Source of the DNA: a virus
Length of the DNA: 64,000 nt
IMG/VR virus record: IMGVR_UViG_3300035190_001334
Coordinates: 81,467 to 145,466 of that record
Strand: one strand, 5' to 3'
Shown: piece after piece, positions 3,627 to 48,194 of the stretch
Layout: each line of letters starts with the position of its first letter
Numbering within the stretch: position 1 is the first letter of the stretch
Notes under the pieces: generated by a model
Seen by the model: only the letters and a program-made list of their open reading frames with translations
Database searches by the model: none
Told to the model about the DNA's origin: nothing
Position numbers and translations under genes: made by a program

Positions 3627-6600
3627 ATTGCATAAGCACTACTAGGTGGTGCAAAGCTTGCACCGTTGTAAAGCGAGATTCTTCGATACACCACAAAAGA
3701 ATCCAAGTTGATGTTCAAGCCGCTTGTAGTTATTGCAGTGGCTTGTCCTATTTGTGCAGGTGTATTCCAGTCACGGTACTCGTAGTCATCAGCAGCTTCG
3801 TATACTCGAACTCCACCAACATACAACCTTAGTATTCCATTTTGTCTTGTCAGAGCAATGTGGTTGAATACAGTCGAGGATAGGGACAAAGCTACAGAAA
3901 AGAGAGCAAGCCCAAGTATTAGAGAGCGCCCTAAGTATAATCGGTCGGCAGAAAAGAACAGTGAGAGTCCTTGTTGTGTGTAGATGTTAACCACCTCACC
4001 ATTGGTAGCTTGGTCAGTAAGCAGCCAACCCGCAATTGTAAAATCGCCCGACAGAAAAGAGAAGTCTGAGTCATTTGGTATTTGCACATAAGCTGGTACA
4101 CTGTTTTTGGAAATAGGAAAGCTAGCGGCTCCGAACTTTTTGGTAACGGTGTCAAGTACCGAGATGTTGCTGGTCAAGGTCTTGGAGCGATAACTTTGGT
4201 CAATAATACTGCTATCGAAGTTCAGTAACGTAACTATTTTAGCTGGCTGGTAGTAGTCGCGAATGCTTCGCTCGATGGCAGAAAAAGAAGTTGGACTAAT
4301 CTTGTAGTCCACAATACAAAACATGGCTACACTGCCTTTTACACTCCTGTCCTCGAACACCCTGTCCTTAGCAATGGAATTGATGGTAACTAGGTCAGTT
4401 GAGTTGAAAATGACTACGCTTAACGATTCTTCAGGTAGCACATAATCACGCTCTCTTTCTGCCCCGTTCGCCCAAACGTCCCCGTAGAAGTCATTTGCCA
4501 GTAATTCTCCATTGTTCCCAGAATTGAAAATGTTGTTGCTATCCTGACCAAATAAGAAAGCTGCACCAGTTTGCCCTGCTTTGCGAATGTAAGCCATGAC
4601 GAAGCAGTAACCACTACTTGTGCTGGGAGTGCCGAAGTCGAGGTGCGAAGAGCCATCTATCTCAAATCGAGCCGCAGGTAGTCCATCGAGTTGAGTTGGT
4701 GTTGTGTAATTCACTGCGTTCGTCGATATTAATTCCTGACCATTTGTGCGATACTCATCAAGTTGAAGTATGTTGCCGCTTGATAGTGTAACGGTTTCAG
4801 GTGTGACGATGAAAAATGAACTGAAGGTATTAAGCAGTCCTTTCAAGTTGATGTAAAGCTGATTAGTAAGTAAAGTGATGCTGACGTTAAAACTGAAAGT
4901 GACAGACTCGGTAGCTGTGTAGGTTCGGATGGTGAAACTGATAAAATCGTCGGTCGGGCAAGTGAATGTAAGGTCGTTGCCAGTTATTGTTGCCGAGTAG
5001 TGGTTGACCAGTATTTCATAGCTGACTGCATTACCAGCAATTTCAGTGACCTTTTTGTCGAGGTTAACAATAACGTCAGAGCTATACCTGAACTCAGTTG
5101 AAGTGTTAAACAACAGTAAAGTAGAATCAAAAAACTTGTTGGCTAGTAAGTGTGTAGCTTCTGCAAGTTCAGCTTCGCTCAATGCAACAGACCAGCCAAT
5201 GAAATACAGTAGTTCCCCTTTCAGTTGAGAAGAGAATCCACTAAAGCCTATTGAAGAAGTTGCATTAGTAGCCGCGATGATTGCGCCGTAGTCTATGGGT
5301 TGGCGATAATTAAAAGTATTGACCCCAACTTTGTTGACTTTTGTGTTCAACTGCGTTATAGCTGTAGTTCCAAACACATCATCACTGGTTCCTGTAGTCC
5401 AAAGAACACCATTGGCAAATATATCTGGAAAGCCGTTAGCCATGAAGCGTTCACCAGTTTGTTTCTGCTTATATACCCAAATGAAGGTTTTGCAATTGAC
5501 TGAAGTGCCTGAGAGTGAACGAGGATTGAGAGAACTATTGGTGATGAAGGAAGAGGTCGTACCGTTGTAAGTTATTTGGTTGACCGAATCGGCTGTGCTG
5601 GTGACGTACAGAGGCTTATCAGGTAATCGGCGTGAGTCTTCCCATTTAGTTATGTTGCCAAAATTATCGGTGTAAATTCCGTAAGGTATGTCATCTACAT
5701 CTTTTAACGTGGAAAGTGATACCGCTATGTTTGATTGTTGTGGTAAGTCAAGAATAAAGGGGTCTGCTATTACAGTTTCTAGTGAAAAACTAAAATAAGA
5801 CACCATACTATTGCTGTTAGTGATGCTGATGCTAAAACTACCATCAAAAACTTCAGGTATATAACCTGATAAAACTGAACCTGTGAAGCTTAGTCCTAAG
5901 CCACTTGGAGATATATAGCTGTACGAAGTGATATCAAAAAATTCGTCAATTGCAATAGTCGCAAAGTCAAAGCTAAAATAAGCCCCAACAAATGCTCTAA
6001 ATGAAGGTTGAGATGAAATAACTACACCATTGTAAGCAATATATATTTGAGCTAACTTAGCTTCTACTGATGCCAATATATCTAACGGGCAAGGTGATGA
6101 TGATGTGATGATTGCAGCTATTTTTCCACGAACACTGAAGTTGCTAGTCCCATTTTTACCCCCAAAACCTGTAATAGTTTCATACTCGTTGCTATTGGAT
6201 ATGTTGGTGACACTTAAAATTCTTGAGGTGTTAAGGGGAACGAACGTTGTTGGTGCTACTGCTCGACTATTTATTCTTGATGTGGCATTGTAAATAGAGT
6301 TGCCAGCTAAAGGCTGCTCTGACCAAAGCGAAGCGCCACCAGAAGGAAAAGCATCATAAAGAAAAGGTGGGTCGCCTAGTGTTTGACGAGGGGCATATAT
6401 TAGAAAACTACCTGACTCCCTTGTAAGGTAAACGAGAATAATTGTACCTACATTGATAGGTCTGTTGAAAAATAGTTGTTGATTACCAGTATCTGAGAAG
6501 TTTATGCTTGGCTGATTATTAAACTGGCTATCATTAGGTATTAATGTAGGTCTATTGCTTGTAGCTTGTAGATAGTTACCATCGAAAAGCAAGTTGTAAA

Positions 6601-17096: not shown

Positions 17097-18128
17097 ATCT
17101 GTCTTTATTACTATTCAATAAGTATAGCATAACCAATAGCACTAGAAAAACTATGCTGCCTTTTTCTGTTTGAAAACTATTGGTAGTCGAGAAAAAACTA
17201 GTGGTATATCGAGTGTTTGCTGCCTATACTTTCAAATTTGCATATTTATTGAAGTGCCTCAAACGTCGAGGAATCGTTGAATAACCATTGTTTTTGGTGT
17301 GCCTTATATTACTACTTCTTCTTCTTCTGGGGGCAACATCTTGAATTAGCCATGCGGCGATGAGCTAGTACTAACTTCGATATTCATAGTATTATCTAGC
17401 TGTTTTATAGTACTTTCTTTGGTAAATTCACGTTATGTATGCTTTCTGAGATTTGGCGTAACAGAGGTGTGAGTATGAAAAATGAGAGGGATATGGGTAT
17501 ATTGATGAGTGTGAATATTGATGATAGTCGATATATCGAGGGGGTTGAAGCAAAATGATAATCATTCTCACTCCCAAAAATCTCCCATATATGAGCTACA
17601 CACGATACAATCCCATTCCATCCCTCACACAAATCCCACATTCTATCTCTTAACCCCTATCCTTCCCTAAGACAAATATCACATCTCTCACATAAATATC
17701 ACTCTTTGCATTGTATAATCCGATACAGTACATTATACAACCTATATGCTATAATCGTTTGAGCGATTTTAATTAAGTCACTCATCCTTTTAGATTACTT
17801 TCACTTACAAGATTATTATATATGTTTCACTTATCTGATTATATAACGACAGCTACCATATGCAATTTGTTGCATAGTCCTAAAATCGATTCTGAGACTA
17901 GCAAAATGTCTAATGTGCAAATATACCTGAATGTATGTAAACAAGTCTTACAGGTCAATTTAGCGACAGTACAAAAAACCATAAGGAATAACTAACGTAG
18001 TGACGCGCACGATACTATATGCTATAACGAAAATTACACGACTTTACTTCGTTGTTTACATAACTTTACAATCGATAGTAGCTGAAACCCTTACCTAGAG
18101 CCAATCTCGAACCAATTTAAAAAAAGTG

Positions 18129-18157
18129 TTGACATTCTAAGCTAACTCCTGTAACTT
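18129..18157 (+). promoter_or_regulatory. Sigma70-type early promoter P1
   Basis: TTGACA-17nt-TAACTT with an A-tract UP element. Confidence 0.7.
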
Positions 18158-18227
18158 AGTTTACATGAGATACGAGATAAGCAAACGCAAGCAATCAAAC
18201 GCAAGCAGTAAGCCAATCGTCTCTCCC

Positions 18228-18246
18228 GTACCTTGAAAATTTCATA
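18228..18246 (+). promoter_or_regulatory. boxA-like antitermination motif, copy 1
   Basis: GTACCTTGAAAATTTCATA resembles cyanobacterial rrn boxA GAACCTTGAAAA. Confidence 0.45.
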
Positions 18247-18299
18247 TTTCATCTGACTCGACACAAACGAGTTCGCTAAAAACGAATTTTAAAAAAGTG

Positions 18300-18328
18300 T
18301 TGACAACCAAAAAGAAATATGCAAAGCT
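18300..18328 (+). promoter_or_regulatory. Sigma70-type early promoter P2
   Basis: Same AAAAAAGTGTTGACA -35/UP element as P1, 17-nt spacer, weaker -10 AAAGCT. Confidence 0.55.
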
Positions 18329-18387
18329 TTAAAGGTCAAAGCAACTAAAGCTTGTATCTGGGTTCTCCAGCGCTACAGATTTAGCCT

Positions 18388-18406
18388 GTACCATGAAAAC
18401 CGAATA
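18388..18406 (+). promoter_or_regulatory. boxA-like antitermination motif, copy 2
   Basis: GTACCATGAAAACCGAATA at a similar distance after P2. Confidence 0.4.
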
Positions 18407-18522
18407 ACTACACAAAACCCAGTTTTATTTTTAGGGTTATCTAATCGCAGTTATCCTGATAGCAAGGGATTGAACGTAAGGCGCTAGATAGGGTATAGCA
18501 AGCAACTGCTTAGTTATATCGC

Positions 18523-18770
18523 GTGATTCTGTCGTATGAGACACAACGTTATCTATAGAGCTTAACCTATAGAATCGTAAGAATAGTTAAGCCTTAGAAA
18601 GTTCGCAGTCACCTAAAAACTGCAAAATATCAATAAAGACAACGACATACTTAATTTTGTAAACGTAACAACTGCTTAAAGCTTGTGATTGTAAGATTAT
18701 CACTGACTGTTAAATTAAGACGGTTAAACGAATAAAACAAGTTAAGTTAGTCTAGTCCTAACTGTGCTGT
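18523..18770 (+). repeat. Structured repeat element A, copy 1
   Basis: Near-identical to 19217-19468 except for a central variable hairpin. Confidence 0.9.
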
Positions 18771-18814
18771 AATTCGCTTACGCTCATTTAAAATAACAAA
18801 GGAGATAAGACAAA

Positions 18815-19144
18815 ATGATAACTAAAGAGTTATTAGATAAAGAATACTACTACATAAGAGACTTAGATAAGCTAACTAGCCCTGAGTACTTACAGAATAT
18901 AAAGTACTACGATTTAGAATATTTTCAAAGAGGCTATTTTTATCTCTACTTTTCTGACAAAATGAACAATTTGGTTCTAAGTTGGATTAACGATAATCTC
19001 GACCCTAAAGGTAATACTGGACACTTTTTAGAAGTTATTGCTACAGCTTTTGATGCTGTAGGATTACCTATTGGAGAGTATGAACGTGTTTTTACTGATA
19101 GTAGAGCGCACGACTTTTTTCTAGATTTGTTTGATTTTGAGTAA
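18815..19144 (+). CDS. Early hypothetical protein (cassette cargo 1)
   Basis: AGGAG RBS, 109 aa. Confidence 0.75.
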   Translation: MITKELLDKEYYYIRDLDKLTSPEYLQNIKYYDLEYFQRGYFYLYFSDKMNNLVLSWINDNLDPKGNTGHFLEVIATAFDAVGLPIGEYERVFTDSRAHDFFLDLFDFE

Positions 19145-19216
19145 CTAAGCTGAACAAATGAACGAAGTAAATACAGCACAGCTAAGACTAGCACTATCGC
19201 TAGTTGTTATCGTGAG
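19145..19216 (+). repeat. Repeat element B, copy 1
   Basis: CTAAGCTGA..ACAGCACAGCTAAGACTAGCACTA..TTATCGTGAG, repeated at 19811-19865. Confidence 0.85.
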
Positions 19217-19468
19217 GTGATTCTGTCGTATGAGACACAACGTTATCTATAGAGCTTAACCTATAGAACCGTAAGAACAGTTAAGCCTATCTTTTGATAG
19301 ATATAACCTAACGGCTGGTTAGTAAACCGTTTAAGACAATGACATACTTAACTTTGTAAACGTAACAACTGCTTAGAGTTTGTGAATGTAAGATTATCAT
19401 TGACTGTTAAATTAAGACGGTTGAACGAATAAAACAGGTTAAGTTTAGTCTAGTCCTAACTGTGCTGT
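19217..19468 (+). repeat. Structured repeat element A, copy 2
   Basis: Direct repeat of 18523-18770. Confidence 0.9.
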
Positions 19469-19501
19469 GAAGCTTATCACTACTATATAGGAGATAAGAA
19501 T

Positions 19502-19810
19502 ATGTGTGAAGTTCATAGAAATGGTAAAGCACTGAAACAAGTTAAAAATCTTGGTTGGTTGCTAAGAAATTGGAAAGATGTAAAAAACTTTGATGTGCGT
19601 TTATCAGGTAATAGGTTCCCTAGTGAATATACATTAACCGCTTTCTCTGATGATTGGTTTTTTACCACTGACTACGCATCGTTAAGCGTGTTACATACTT
19701 GGTTAAATAGACCTGTATTTGTTGGGTTGCCTATCAATTGGTTATCTGCTGATAAAGTTAAGATTGGTAGCCTTGAGTATGTAAAATTAAGTCCTGATAT
19801 CGCATCGTAA
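19502..19810 (+). CDS. Early hypothetical protein (cassette cargo 2)
   Basis: AGGAG RBS, 102 aa, unrelated to cargo 1. Confidence 0.75.
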   Translation: MCEVHRNGKALKQVKNLGWLLRNWKDVKNFDVRLSGNRFPSEYTLTAFSDDWFFTTDYASLSVLHTWLNRPVFVGLPINWLSADKVKIGSLEYVKLSPDIAS

Positions 19811-19865
19811 CTAAGCTGACAGCACAGCTAAGACTAGCACTAACGCTATGTCTATTATCGTGAGG
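19811..19865 (+). repeat. Repeat element B, copy 2
   Basis: Repeat of 19145-19216. Confidence 0.85.
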
Positions 19866-20197
19866 TTAATTATGTATCTCGACATCGTGCCAAGTCAATA
19901 TAGAGGTTTTTGGTTCTGTCATAACTTCGATGTTGTTGAGTCACCAAAGTATGTTGATGTTTGTGTTTGGTGTGTAAGGTTGCAAGCGTACTTTAAAAGC
20001 TTGTAACATTAACAAAACACCCTACACCCATTAATGAGTCTATGGTAAATATTTAAAATCCCCCAAAAATTTCTGTCTAGCTTCATGTAGGTTGATTATT
20101 CCTAACAGCATAGTTTTTTACTGTGCTGTCAAGAGTATTCACCTAAAAAGTGTATATCTCTACTAACCGCTAAAACAGTCTATAGGACTGGAATCAA

Positions 20198-20551
20198 ATG
20201 AACAAACGTGGGATTATAGCTGAAGGTCTTAATAGAGGCTACAGCATAGCAAAAAACATCGAACTTGTAGATATTGGTGATTACTGCGATGGTCAATTTT
20301 TAGATGAACGTGAAAACGTCAAAATCACATCAGACAATTGGCTAGAGTTTCATACTAACTACGCCTATGAATGCGAGTCTAATGACCGTCAATTTTCACC
20401 ATTTGAGTTCTTGGCTAACGACATCAACGCTACAGAAGATAATCCAAGGGTTAAATTTGAACCTTGGAGTGTTTTCGATGAAGCAATTTCTCGTGGTATC
20501 GCTAAAGCGCTTAAAGAGCGATGGAAGTCTCTACAAGTTGACAAAAAGTAG
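20198..20551 (+). CDS. Early hypothetical protein
   Basis: 117-aa ORF with RBS. Confidence 0.7.
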   Translation: MNKRGIIAEGLNRGYSIAKNIELVDIGDYCDGQFLDERENVKITSDNWLEFHTNYAYECESNDRQFSPFEFLANDINATEDNPRVKFEPWSVFDEAISRGIAKALKERWKSLQVDKK

Positions 20552-20762
20552 AGACTAAAACTAATGAAGCTTTAGAAGTGTTAAATCAACTTAAATTTAA
20601 CTCTACTTGTCTGCTTAGTTCTATAGAACGTGATACAGGCTATTGACTTTTTTCCTAACTGCCTGTAAGCTTTATGTTTATTGGCAGTCAAGAGCAAAGT
20701 AGTTAACACTTATAGCGCTCTTTTCGCTAACGCTTAAACTAGAACAACTAGGAATTAATACA

Positions 20763-21284: not shown

Positions 21285-21384
21285 ATAGAGTTTTCCTAGC
21301 AGTATCCGCTTGGGTATTGCTAAGAGCGCTCTAAGTGTCTCTTTTCAATTAATCACTTACTGTAAAAACAGGAATTAAAATCTC

Positions 21385-22347
21385 ATGGCAAGAATCAAAC
21401 GTGTTTTTCAAAATGCTAAGGAATGCATTCATGCATGGGCGCAACAGTCCCAAGATGAGGGACGCTCTAGTAATGTATCATTCAGAGCATCTAGCACTGC
21501 CCTAGAAGTTGGTGATGTGCTTTACAGCTACGATACTGCTATAGCTGCATTTCGTGAAACCCCTAACGGTGCAAAAGTCGTATTTCTTGACTATTGCTCC
21601 CACTCATCTTGCACATCAAAGCATCAAATGGCTATACGTCACAGCATTACACAACCTATCTACACTTATGACGATATCCCTCACTGGGTTAGAGATGATG
21701 TGAGATACCTTAGCGGTAGACGTGGCTCTAGGCGTGACAATGCGCCCCACACTGTCAAACCTGAATCTATTTGGCAACAATACAAAGATATCTTTGATGC
21801 TCTTGTTGCTACAGTTGGACAAAAGCGCTTTGCACGTACATCTTGCGAACGCTTAAACATGGCTAGAGAGTATGAAGCTGAAGCCAATCGCATCAAGCGT
21901 TGTTTCAATCTTGATAATTTCCCTGACTTAGAGCTAGTCATTACTCCTCAAATGCAGGAGTATGTAGAGCTTGCAGAACAAGCTAAAGCAGCAAAAGAAA
22001 AACGTGAGAAGGAAAGAATTCAGCGTGACATTGAACGTACTGCAATCGACCGTGAAAAATGGCTTACAGGACATTGCAATCGTTACCCTCACAGCTACTC
22101 TTTGCCAATTGTTCTACGCCTATCCCCTAGCGACTCTGAGCGTGTTGAAACCTCTAGAGGTGCATTTGTACCTGTCAAGGTGTGCGAACGTCTCTATCGT
22201 GCATTTAAAGCCCGTCAAATGCCTGATGATGTACGAGTTGGTAACTACACTTTGAATGAAGTATCTGAAAACGGCATAACTATCGGTTGCCATAAAATCA
22301 GCACTGATGAGCTTGAGAGATTTGCTAAAGTAATCGGTCTAGCTTAA
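21385..22347 (+). CDS. Conserved phage early hypothetical protein
   Basis: YSY.TAIA, S..TSKHQ, VETSRGA.VP and IGCH.I motifs. Confidence 0.8.
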   Translation: MARIKRVFQNAKECIHAWAQQSQDEGRSSNVSFRASSTALEVGDVLYSYDTAIAAFRETPNGAKVVFLDYCSHSSCTSKHQMAIRHSITQPIYTYDDIPHWVRDDVRYLSGRRGSRRDNAPHTVKPESIWQQYKDIFDALVATVGQKRFARTSCERLNMAREYEAEANRIKRCFNLDNFPDLELVITPQMQEYVELAEQAKAAKEKREKERIQRDIERTAIDREKWLTGHCNRYPHSYSLPIVLRLSPSDSERVETSRGAFVPVKVCERLYRAFKARQMPDDVRVGNYTLNEVSENGITIGCHKISTDELERFAKVIGLA

Positions 22348-22424
22348 CTGTCGAAACCTCACTCGCGACCGTAGGGAGTGAGGTCTTGTCTAGCTGACTA
22401 CTAGGCAACTGATGAGACAAGTCA
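22347..22424 (+). ncRNA. Hammerhead ribozyme, type II
   Basis: TGTC-GAAA-CCTCACTC/GAGTGAGG-TC^-TTGTCTAG/CTAGGCAA-CTGATGA-GACA; loop I TGACT can pair with 3' AGTCA; predicted cut after 22385. Confidence 0.9.
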
Positions 22425-24242: not shown

Positions 24243-24968
24243 ATTTACTCCCAAAGGTATACAAAATAACTTGACTTTTCCTATCTGTTCGTGAGAAGCT
24301 ACCCTTAACGAACAGACAAAAGCAGTCACGCTCTACAACAAACTTTTACAATCGGAATATTACGCCATGAAAACATATCAATCACCATTTCATGCAACTT
24401 TACCAAAAAGTGAAGCAGACAAAGCTTGCATCGAAGCTGACTACACGATACATAATCGAGACTTGCCACTATCTCGCCCAACATCAAGGCGCAATTCTTG
24501 GAGCTTAATTCCAGCCATCAAATATTAGAGCATCGTATGGGAGGGTATACCCTTAACTACCCTCTCTTTAATTCGCTCACTACGTCAGTTACGCTCATTC
24601 TTTCCACTGACGTTAGTTGCCAACTTTCTCAGGAAAATAACTATGGAAACTGAAATTATCTACAGGTTGCAAGTCTACCGTGACACATACAACGACTTCA
24701 AAGACGCTGGTTTTGATGATTGGCTTGATGAAGCTGATGCAAAAGATTTTTTAGACCATCAACAGAAAGATTATGAGCATGAGTTATGGAGACTCATTAA
24801 AATCACAACTACCTATGAACCTATCTAAACTCACTCACTGCTATCAACTCTCAATCGCTGAGAGAAGCGTCACCAAGACACGCAACCAAGTTAACCTTGT
24901 AAAGATAGCCTCACACCTGCAACAAGTCTCAAATCGTCAAATCTTGCACTCTATAGGAGAATATCTCA

Positions 24969-27401: not shown

Positions 27402-27486
27402 ATTCTCTCTCGCTGGGTAGTCTTGTACTGCCTAGCCAAAGGTAATCTAGCGTTACCTCAACAAACTACATTAAGGAGCAATTCAA

Positions 27487-32326: not shown

Positions 32327-32543
32327 GTCAGCAACCCCGCACTGAAGTGACGGGGCTTCGAGCCTAAAGCTTGGAGCCATGCTGACCAGCCTAAGTCTTA
32401 ACTGACTACGTTATTTAGGTCACGACACCTCGGAATGCTTGCTAGTTCCCCGCTCTGTCGTTTGTAATTAAACAGTTCTAAGGTCACTGGAACAGTGTTG
32501 CAAGCCTAACAAGCCTAGATAACATTGGCGAAGCAAACATTAC
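32327..32543 (+). ncRNA. omegaRNA (HEARO-type) scaffold of IscB
   Basis: GTCAGCAACCCCGCACTGAAGTGACGGGGCTT...GCTGACCAGCCTAAG...ACTACGTT...GCTAGTTCCCCGCTCTG...AACATTGGCGAAGCAAACATTAC directly upstream of iscB. Confidence 0.9.
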
Positions 32544-32562: not shown

Positions 32563-33834
32563 ATGTCAAACCAAATCTTTGTACTAGACACCAATCTCAA
32601 GCCACTGACACCTTGCAAGCCATCTATGGCGCGTAAGTTACTCAATGCAAATAAAGCTGCGGTATTCCGTCAATTCCCATTCACTATTATCTTAAAAAAG
32701 GAAGTAGTTGCTAACCCAGAACCAATTGAAATAAAGATTGATGCTGGCTCCAAAACAACGGGATTTGCATTAGTTCAAGACGAAAAAGTTATCTTTGGCG
32801 CAGAACTTAGTCACCGTGGTCAAGCCATCAAAAATAGTCTTGAATCGCGCCAATCTCTGAGACGCGGCAGACGAAATCGCAAAACTCGTTACCGTCAAGC
32901 TAGATTTTTGAATCGCACCCGTCCTAAAGGTTGGTTAGCTCCAAGCCTAGAACATCGTGTTTTAACGATTATGACTTGGGTACGCAAGTTTATTAAATTA
33001 GCCCCCATTGGTTCAATTGTTTCTGAACTTGTTCGATTCGACTTGCAACAGATAGAGAATCCTGAAATATCAGGGATTGAATATCAGCAAGGAGAACTAC
33101 AAGGCTATGAAGTACGCGAGTATCTACTTGAAAAATGGGACAGAAAATGTGCTTACTGCGGTACTAAAAATGTACCGTTGCAAGTAGAACATATTCACCC
33201 TAAATCTAAAGGCGGCTCTAACCGTATCTCTAATCTATGTCTTGCCTGTGAGCCATGCAACCTTAAAAAAGGAGTGCAAGGCATTACCGATTTCTTAGTT
33301 AAAAAACCTGATGTTTTGAAAAAAGTGTTGGCTCAAGTCAAGCGCCCACTGAAAGATGCGGCAGCCGTGAACTCTACCCGTTGGGCATTGCTCAATGCTC
33401 TCAAAGCTACTGGCTTGCCTACTAGTACTGGCTCAGGCGGTCAAACTAAATTCAATCGCTCTCGCTTAAATCTGCCTAAAACCCATTGGCTTGACGCGGC
33501 TTGTGTCGGGCAAGTTGATAGCTTGAAAGTGCTAACTAACAAGCCTTTAATTATTAAGGCAACTGGTCACGGCACTAGGCAAATGTGCAGAACAGACAAG
33601 TATGGATTTCCATCGCGCCATGTTCCTAGATGTAAATTTGTTAAAGGTTTCCAGACTGGTGACATTGTGAAAGCGATGGTCACTACTGGCAAAAAGATTG
33701 GTGAATATGTTGGGCGTATTGCTGTCCGCTCTACGGGTAGTTTCAATATCTCAGCATCAACATTGATTCAAGGTATCAGTCACAAGTATTGCAAAACTAT
33801 TCATCGCAAGGATGGCTATAGCTATGGTTTCTAA
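32563..33834 (+). CDS. iscB: IscB RNA-guided endonuclease (RRXRR, split RuvC, HNH)
   Basis: PLTPC (PLMP), IDAGSKTTG (RuvC-I), RRGRRNRKTRYR bridge helix, ELVRFD, CAYC..EHI.PKS.GG.N...NL..AC..CN (HNH), HWLDAAC. Confidence 0.95.
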   Translation: MSNQIFVLDTNLKPLTPCKPSMARKLLNANKAAVFRQFPFTIILKKEVVANPEPIEIKIDAGSKTTGFALVQDEKVIFGAELSHRGQAIKNSLESRQSLRRGRRNRKTRYRQARFLNRTRPKGWLAPSLEHRVLTIMTWVRKFIKLAPIGSIVSELVRFDLQQIENPEISGIEYQQGELQGYEVREYLLEKWDRKCAYCGTKNVPLQVEHIHPKSKGGSNRISNLCLACEPCNLKKGVQGITDFLVKKPDVLKKVLAQVKRPLKDAAAVNSTRWALLNALKATGLPTSTGSGGQTKFNRSRLNLPKTHWLDAACVGQVDSLKVLTNKPLIIKATGHGTRQMCRTDKYGFPSRHVPRCKFVKGFQTGDIVKAMVTTGKKIGEYVGRIAVRSTGSFNISASTLIQGISHKYCKTIHRKDGYSYGF

Positions 33835-48123: not shown

Positions 48124-48194
48124 TGGGGAGTGGCGAAATGGTTACGCGACTGCTCAACAGCAGGACTATGTAGGTTCGAGTCCTACCTCTTCAA
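48124..48194 (+). tRNA. Atypical tRNA (Gln-like acceptor, shortened anticodon loop, identity undetermined)
   Basis: TGGGGAG/CTCTTCA acceptor, D-arm GCG..CGC, GTAGG-TTCGAGT-CCTAC T-arm; anticodon arm CTGCT-CAAC-AGCAG. Confidence 0.65.

Follow-up and report, generated by a model that had tools for sequence, protein, structure and literature searches.

The stretch of DNA analysed here (the window, 64,000 nt) comprises bases 81467-145466 of the complete virus record IMGVR_UViG_3300035190_001334 (145,466 bp). Among named phages it is closest to Pam2 (ON014754) and PA-SR01 (MT234670), which infect Pseudanabaena, and its source is a PA-SR01/Pam2-like Pseudanabaena cyanophage. Directly 3' of a divergent intergenic region, the window carries two tandem cassettes. 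In each, a structured spacer (element A) is followed by a small open reading frame (ORF), the cargo, which is enclosed by two short arms that pair with each other across the gene. Minus-strand genes, including one for a T5orf172/GIY-YIG-like nuclease, lie to the left of the divergent region. To its right runs a long plus-strand operon of small genes, mostly of no known function, and the cassette region constitutes the leader and the first genes of this early operon. The elements are not mentioned in papers on Pseudanabaena phages. A search of Rfam with positions 17500-20600 returned zero matches at the gathering score and none even at E values up to 10, in agreement with a preliminary description of the locus, made from the sequence alone, which had recognised no known RNA family. 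The cargo genes and the parts of the stems around them are as follows.

18752-18770, + strand: arm A of cassette 1, CTAGTCCTAACTGTGCTGT
18771-18814, + strand: inner-stem 5' strand and 5' untranslated region of cargo 1, with the ribosome-binding site AGGAGATAAG at 18800-18809
18815-19144, + strand: cargo ORF 1, 109 amino acids, an orphan
19145-19172, + strand: inner-stem 3' strand of cassette 1, with nested flanks, the type-1 flank TAACTAAGCTG and then a type-2 flank ending in AGTAAAT
19173-19191, + strand: arm B of cassette 1, ACAGCACAGCTAAGACTAG
19192-19221, + strand: tail after arm B of cassette 1 and duplication junction, where TTATCGTGAGGT meets GATTC; CGTGA is common to the junction and the left edge of copy 1 (18520-18529)
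19450-19468, + strand: arm A of cassette 2, CTAGTCCTAACTGTGCTGT
19469-19501, + strand: inner-stem 5' strand of cassette 2 and ribosome-binding site (19489-19498)
19502-19810, + strand: cargo ORF 2, 102 amino acids, of the same family as the cargo in the related loci L005, L110 and L238
19811-19837, + strand: inner-stem 3' strand and arm B of cassette 2
19819-19837, + strand: arm B of cassette 2, ACAGCACAGCTAAGACTAG

A repeat search aligned 18523-18594 with 19217-19288 (72 nt, 97% identity), 18636-18748 with 19333-19445 (113 nt, 93%), 18747-18770 with 19445-19468 (24 nt, 100%) and 19173-19202 with 19819-19848 (30 nt, 97%) as direct repeats, and returned 18752-18774 with 19169-19191 and 19450-19468 with 19819-19837 as inverted pairs. 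Arm A pairs with arm B at 17 of 19 positions, interrupted by a C.A mismatch at position 7 and an A.C mismatch at position 10. Read from the outside in, the cassette stem consists of 4 bp (TAGT, at 18748-18751 in copy 1, with ACTA, set off by one bulged C), 6 bp, the mismatch box, 9 bp and an inner extension of 6-7 bp that is specific to each copy: TCATTT (18784-18789) with AAATGA (19156-19161) in cassette 1, AGCTTA (19471-19476) with TAAGCT (19812-19817) in cassette 2. The repeats and arms given in the preliminary description are all present where it had placed them, and the copy-specific extensions exist as well. Its proposal that each ORF sits inside a long-range stem is borne out by the conservation of the arms in relatives and by a fold of the whole region (1371 nt), in which the arms of cassette 1 pair in the minimum-energy structure and those of both cassettes pair in the centroid. 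No further exact copies of the arms occur elsewhere in the 145-kb genome.

The same 19-nt arms, mostly 100% identical, were found in about 16 related genomes or contigs, collected by exact-pattern scans of viral and metagenome contigs, one protein-led look-up and the inclusion of the two GenBank phages (L-numbers in this text are labels of the compared loci or contigs). A looser 15-mer scan of viral contigs yielded 98 matches, nearly all of them due to chance and without a partner arm. A neighbouring conserved gene has diverged to 74-82% DNA identity, while most of the genomes retain all 38 arm bases. Among the relatives the arms lie 13 to 402 nt apart, and the ORFs found between them belong to seven unrelated families of 54-112 amino acids. 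In Pam2 and PA-SR01 this first slot holds no ORF and forms a plain hairpin with a loop of 13 or 19 nt. Upstream of the cargo, the sequence is constant as far as the coding sequence and includes the arm, one strand of the inner helix and a ribosome-binding site, GGAGATAAGA; downstream, the constant part is about 10 nt (TAAnTAAGCTG) followed by the arm. Many relatives have a second slot with the arms GTATTCCTTACTGTGCTGT and ACAGCACAGCAAAGAGTAC, which likewise encloses variable ORFs, of at least four families. The cargo is swappable, as had been suspected, and the comparison of relatives answers the question that the preliminary description had raised: cargo varies and stems covary.

The two cargo ORFs of the window are unrelated to each other, and as to their function, Pfam and PHROG gave zero matches and the Atlas no informative one. 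The sole relative of cargo ORF 1 outside its own record is one partial protein of 60 amino acids. The cargo-2 family is found with three different inner helices, in the window, L005 and L238, and in L238 the gene lies exactly inside the sequence that in PA-SR01 forms the loop of the empty hairpin. In the window, cassette 1 has two 3' flanks, which are nested. More distant cargo-2 homologues occur in Myxococcus phage Mx1 and on unrelated contigs without such stems, so the cargo genes do not depend on the stems. The cargo of L110 (minus strand; 3852-4047 when oriented) belongs to the cargo-2 family but is truncated at its N-terminus, suggesting cassette decay or partial replacement.

Substitutions within the arms indicate in which molecule the stems form. 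In slot 2 the inner helix CTGTGCTGT/ACAGCACAG is replaced by CTGCGATGT/ACATCGCAG in L005, L007, L012 and L110, a change of two fully compensated pairs, and in L004 a central pair of the arms is A-U instead of U-A. Among the 12 distinct arm pairs of the + strand, 6 of the 17 helix positions show changes on both sides, and the C.A and A.C mismatches are invariant in all 12. Single substitutions mostly produce G.U on the + strand (L004, Pam2, L111, L238 and the ends of slot 2); two produce a mismatch (PA-SR01 and L007). Because of the compensatory changes, the retained C.A mismatches and the prevalence of single changes that yield G.U, this comparison indicates that the stems fold as RNA of the + strand, that is, the coding strand. 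Such a pattern is expected for + strand RNA, not for a DNA cruciform or an opposite transcript. The earlier suggestion of an RNA-level structure is thereby supported.

The cassette is not an isolated unit. The covariance model R2, built from local intergenic hairpins further along the operon, shows that its stem is a split member of an operon-wide family. The local members in the window are:

20095-20141, + strand: local intergenic hairpin with outer stem, CUA/CAA box and 10-bp inner stem
20648-20700, + strand: local intergenic hairpin of the family
21289-21332, + strand: local intergenic hairpin of the family
24274-24328, + strand: local intergenic hairpin of the family
27402-27448, + strand: local intergenic hairpin of the family

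These five sites have a common fold: an outer helix, a 5'-CUA/YAA-3' box (C.A, one pair, then A.C or A-U), an inner helix of 8-11 bp and a loop, the local members having helices of 5 + 10 bp. An alignment of the five window sites with two sites of Pam2 has 91% of its cells paired, and in 9 of 15 pairs both partners have changed. None of 500 shuffles reached the score of this alignment, and slid controls pair in only 32-56% of cells. One U.G pair is invariant in the family and would be a mismatch if read on the other strand. All seven sites lie between + strand ORFs, the intercistronic position of ribonuclease III (RNase III)-type sites.

A strict regular-expression scan had found only one member of the family and was replaced by the covariance model. 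R2 recovers the empty cassette hairpin of Pam2, which lies outside its training set, at an E value of 0.006, and its match scores are about twice as high on the + strand as on the - strand. Run on the whole genome, it finds the five local sites only; on five related genomes it finds 3-6 sites each, clustered just 3' of the cassette slots and on the gene strand. The family is thus confined to the early operon in this genome and in the five relatives. Since R2 finds the empty Pam2 cassette hairpin and the fold is shared, the cassette stems are split members of the hairpin family that punctuates the early genes. In the two split members of the window, a complete small gene that brings its own ribosome-binding site takes the place of the apical loop, and the halves of the hairpin pair across 350-400 nt around it. 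All hairpins of the family are devoid of a U-tail, and the promoter/terminator scan predicted zero terminators. An A/C-rich run that recalls enterobacterial boxA, CGCTCTACAACAAAC or similar, follows two of the hairpins (24320-24335 and 27448-27465).

Upstream of each arm A lies element A, which had been described as a single pseudoknotted unit of about 250 nt. Its parts are:

18520-18597, + strand: pseudoknot module, copy 1, with helices P1, P2 and PK and a linker
18530-18543, + strand: P1 of copy 1
18552-18558 with 18567-18573, + strand: P2 of copy 1
18560-18566 with 18586-18592, + strand: PK helix of copy 1
18574-18585, + strand: conserved linker AYCGTAAGAAYA, 12 nt, nearly invariant
18598-18640, + strand: variable central segment of copy 1, hairpin GCAGT...ACTGC, of the type found in L011
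18649-18751, + strand: spacer module of copy 1, with a closing helix of 18649-18660 with 18737-18747
19214-19291, + strand: pseudoknot module, copy 2
19292-19449, + strand: variable central segment and spacer module of copy 2, the central segment being of the type found in L009, L006 and L010

The free energy of element A alone is unremarkable (z of -0.6 and -0.8), so thermodynamics by itself gives it no support. Among six homologues, 97.6% of cells of the pseudoknot module are paired and three pairs have changed on both sides, a score that 0 of 500 shuffles reached. Both pseudoknot helices are 95-100% paired with compensatory changes, in about three lineages only: the P2 hairpin TCTATAG/CTATAGA becomes TCTATC/GGTAGA in relatives, and one pair of the crossing helix GCTTAAC/GTTAAGC appears as C-G, U.G and U-A. 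The dimensions (first loop of 1 nt, helices of 7 bp, third loop of 12 nt) would fit an H-type pseudoknot, and P2 and PK could also be alternatives rather than helices that form together. In the spacer module, the last ~100 nt before arm A, which is present in all relatives in three sequence types, a hairpin at 18685-18703 holds a conserved UGUAAnAnU loop over a changing, covarying stem. Folds of most relatives contain the closing helix, whose sequence covaries between the spacer types (ACTTAAC/GTTAAGT, ATAACTCA/TGAGTTAT and ATAGCTC/GAGCTAT). Alignment of the spacers with MAFFT and RNAalifold was poor owing to their mosaic modules and recovered one hairpin only.

Of the helices initially proposed for element A, the P2 hairpin, the crossing helix and the closing helix covary. 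The long-range TGTCGT/ACGACA helix fails, being lost in L009, L006, L010 and L011, where the local hairpin P1 covaries instead (TGTC/GACA, GTCAT/ATGAC, GCTC/GGGC). The central hairpin had been thought to keep its shape between the copies; the segments at 18598-18640 and 19292-19337 differ in both sequence and shape, each matching another relative. The pseudoknot module recurs in L006, L009/L111, L010 and L011 and, by the model R1, nowhere else in the compared loci or IMG/VR. It is missing from most relatives that have the same slots, which means that the stems do not depend on it. Element A is a mosaic of separable modules rather than a single fixed RNA of 250 nt. In both copies the pseudoknot hairpin overlaps a mini-ORF of 9 codons, MRHNVIYRA (18536-18565 and 19230-19259); this ORF has an 8-codon counterpart in L009 and none in L011, and copy 2 has GAGG 12 nt upstream.

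The A copies are 85-97% identical to each other. The start of copy 2 is the point at which the tail TTATCGTGAGGT, a sequence also present behind arm B of cassette 2, gives way to the left edge of the pseudoknot module (GATTC...); CGTGA is common to the two sequences. The central segments and cargo of the copies resemble those of different lineages, so recombination with another phage, and not duplication in situ, is the probable origin of the second unit.

The region between the divergent genes and the first cassette contains a duplicated signal, AAAAAAGTGTTGACA, present in two copies:

18122-18134, + strand: promoter-like site 1, an A-tract and TTGACA (18129-18134) with a weak -10 hexamer; AAAAGTGTTGACA is conserved in relatives
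18228-18239, + strand: boxA-like motif 1, GTACCTTGAAAA, matching 11 of 12 positions of the cyanobacterial rrn boxA GAACCTTGAAAA
18293-18305, + strand: promoter-like site 2, with the -35 hexamer at 18300
18388-18399, + strand: boxA-like motif 2, GTACCATGAAAA, matching 10 of 12 positions

The boxA-like motifs follow the -35 hexamers at 18129 and 18300 by 94 and 83 nt. In the relatives the distance from TTGACA is 83-98 nt in all except L006 (168 nt), and some carry GAACCTTGAAAA exactly. This places the consensus shortly 3' of a promoter-like site, the arrangement of an rrn-type boxA. GAACCTTGAAAA is the boxA consensus of cyanobacterial rRNA spacers (PMC8461337). We find an extended form of the motif just 5' of the 23S rRNA in Nodosilinea and just 5' of large tRNA arrays in Cylindrospermum, Coleofasciculus and Kamptonema, and since it precedes both kinds of genes, the boxA-type motif marks stable-RNA operons. 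Its occurrence is not limited to rRNA spacers: in the cyanobacterial genomes L130, L126 and L167 a boxA-type motif, ACCTTGAAAACTGAATA, lies directly upstream of large tRNA gene arrays. From their sequences we infer that both promoter-like sites are active.

Another intergenic slot of the operon (22347-22422) contains, in order, GAAA, an 8-bp stem III, GUC, an 8-bp stem I, CUGAUGA and a 4-bp stem II, and reads as a canonical-looking hammerhead core. One relative (L016:5950-6045) has a similar core with a different stem III and a U in place of C3. Rfam reports neither copy.

As far as the comparison of sequences goes, the early operon possesses a hairpin family, gene-enclosing stems, exchangeable ORFs and modular structured spacers, all on + strand RNA. 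This poses the question what the stems are for. With moderate confidence, and by analogy, we propose that they are RNase III-type processing and stabilising sites whose flanks double as recombination arms. The early RNA of phage T7 and the precursors of rRNA use similar stems, which is the reason for reading these as nuclease sites. RNase III sites of T7 consist of two helices separated by an internal loop, and in boxA-dependent transcripts long-range stems cut by RNase III release the 16S and 23S rRNAs. At about two helical turns or more, the cassette stems have the double-stranded length of RNase III-type sites. The promoter-like sites, the boxA motifs and the hammerhead-like core provide a context that we count as support for processing, and the absence of U-tails, terminators and an integrase excludes, in our view, terminator-based and integrase-based alternatives.

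In this scheme, the stems would be cut by a double-strand-specific endonuclease, most likely the RNase III of the host, and a long boxA-modified transcript would be divided into separate, monocistronic mRNAs. The inner helix would keep the 5' and 3' ends of each mRNA paired and thereby shielded from 5'- and 3'-dependent decay, and cutting would also free the spacer RNAs. At the DNA level, the constant flanks would serve as homology arms for the exchange of enclosed ORFs between relatives that infect the same cell. Recombination at the CGTGA microhomology may have produced the tandem copy, with the central segment and cargo of copy 2 taken from another lineage. Of the functions offered in the preliminary description, mRNA excision or stabilisation and a recombination scaffold fit best; a ribozyme and circularisation are without support.

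Several observations weigh against processing by RNase III. No phage-encoded RNase III was found, and we know of no cyanobacterial RNase III site with a C.A box. Nor do the stems resemble the host-type 23S rRNA stem examined, that of Nodosilinea. The -10 hexamers are weak, and a consensus scan calls neither upstream promoter. Strict conservation of the arms could in part reflect frequent homogenising recombination rather than selection on RNA, and the covariation counts are based on few lineages and on family members that are paralogous sites.

The closest likeness is to the early RNase III sites of T7 (R0.3, R0.5, R1, R1.1 and R1.3). There too, a family of hairpins lies between the cistrons of an early operon, which the host polymerase reads from tandem strong promoters (promoter-like sites would take this part here), and the sites are built of two helices around a small conserved internal box, without a U-tail. 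The phage sites described here have no sequence similarity to those of T7, their host is a cyanobacterium, and their cleavage is something we infer. They also differ in that the box holds two conserved C.A mismatches and that two of the sites are split, a whole gene replacing the apical loop. With rRNA operons, the locus has in common boxA motifs after the promoters, pairing flanks hundreds of nt apart that enclose a functional RNA, and structured RNAs in the spacers, but the enclosed RNA is a protein-coding message of 200-400 nt.

Among gene cassettes, the PeSLs of T4-type phages (PMC2839356, PMC4122927) are similar in that conserved stem-loop motifs flank variable early ORFan genes and recombination between the motifs swaps the genes, as would happen here. 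PeSLs combine a promoter with a terminator hairpin and occur as direct repeats between genes, whereas here the halves of a single hairpin bracket the gene, and the promoter/terminator scan finds zero + strand promoter-like or terminator-like sites at the arms. Integron attC cassettes resemble the locus in being small promoterless ORFs with imperfect inverted repeats that have conserved unpaired positions. In the phage, however, the repeats stand on both sides of the ORF, the substitutions indicate pairing of coding-strand RNA, and the tyrosine recombinase (integrase) domain PF00589 is absent across the whole 145-kb genome.

The same data can be read in other ways. The hairpins and split stems might be protein-binding sites that are not cut, with a phage early protein or host factor reading the C.A/A.C box and thereby setting translation, transcript elongation or RNA folding for each cistron. 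A strict mismatch box within otherwise variable helices does resemble a specific recognition element, two of the hairpins are followed by a boxA-like CGCTCTACAA, and many phage early proteins have no known function. We still consider this rather unlikely: a candidate RNA-binding protein has not been identified, helices of ~20 bp or more are more like nuclease substrates, and the self-cleaving-type core in an equivalent intergenic slot fits cutting better. Less probable again is a role of the arms in DNA alone, as inverted repeats of the kind seen in miniature inverted-repeat transposable elements (MITEs) or integron attC sites, or as cruciform recombination sites, with an RNA fold that has no role. 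Such sites would account for the precise replacement of cargo between constant flanks and for the nested 3' flanks of two types in cassette 1, and the PeSLs of T4-type phages demonstrate that conserved stem-loop cassettes can shuffle genes (PMC2839356). Yet the substitutions favour G.U on the coding strand, and these pairs, like the invariant U.G, would be mismatches on DNA or on the other strand. The family is strand-specific and intercistronic, the phage lacks an integrase, and empty sites retain both arms as a hairpin, so that the arms are not the termini of an insertion.

The pseudoknot invites the thought that the ~250-nt element is a new ribozyme by which the enclosed mRNA is cut out or made circular, given its two covarying helices that cross and are joined by a nearly invariant 12-nt linker, and the hammerhead-like core elsewhere in the operon. 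This would be surprising, since Rfam gives zero ribozyme matches, the pseudoknot module is missing in most relatives that share the stems and cargo slots, and the empty hairpins and local family members are without it too. The remaining possibility, that the locus is a recent neutral tandem duplication with chance complementarity, had been put forward in the preliminary description as the alternative to a functional element. The identity of the A copies and the microhomology at the junction agree with it, but we give it almost no credence: it is at odds with the comparative data already in hand, in which arms and modules are conserved and covary across diverged genomes and the central segments of the copies match different lineages.

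Beyond processing as proposed above, a more far-reaching extension seems possible although doubtful, namely that the early operon imitates a stable-RNA operon in full. Here, a boxA-modified polymerase would help long-range stems to form around protein-coding messages. Excision in the manner of 16S rRNA would leave these messages paired at their ends, unusually stable and perhaps ligated. The genes expressed first would form an exchangeable pool within the phage lineage, defined by the C.A-boxed stems, and release of the pseudoknot and spacer modules would yield new functional small RNAs.

Each component of the system has an analogue that is already known. New are the nesting of a whole gene in a processing-type stem, the strictly conserved C.A box, the rrn-like setting and the stem as an exchange slot. 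Should the stems indeed be cut, we would know of no earlier case in which whole protein-coding cistrons lie in the loop of a processing stem, as rRNAs do, nor of one in which such an element doubles as a slot for gene exchange. A cyanophage would then borrow the machinery of host stable-RNA operons, boxA and double-strand processing, for its first genes. The first-expressed genes are likely to serve host takeover or anti-defence, and it is here that turnover is fastest. The conserved C.A box offers a precise, mutable target for studying the specificity of RNase III or another nuclease in cyanobacteria, and two cultured phages, Pam2 and PA-SR01, carry the elements.

Some further features lie outside the cassettes. 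The divergent intergenic region contains three direct repeats of ~18 nt (TCYCTAAGAYAAATATCA; 17621-17702), which are conserved in Pam2 (L003:1715-1786) and look like operator sites. A single tRNA gene is located at 48124-48194 (Rfam, 41.9 bits). Finally, a HEARO RNA (Rfam RF02033, 165 bits) at 32327-32543 is followed by an ORF of 423 amino acids (32563-33834), the usual IscB-type arrangement, here within a phage genome.

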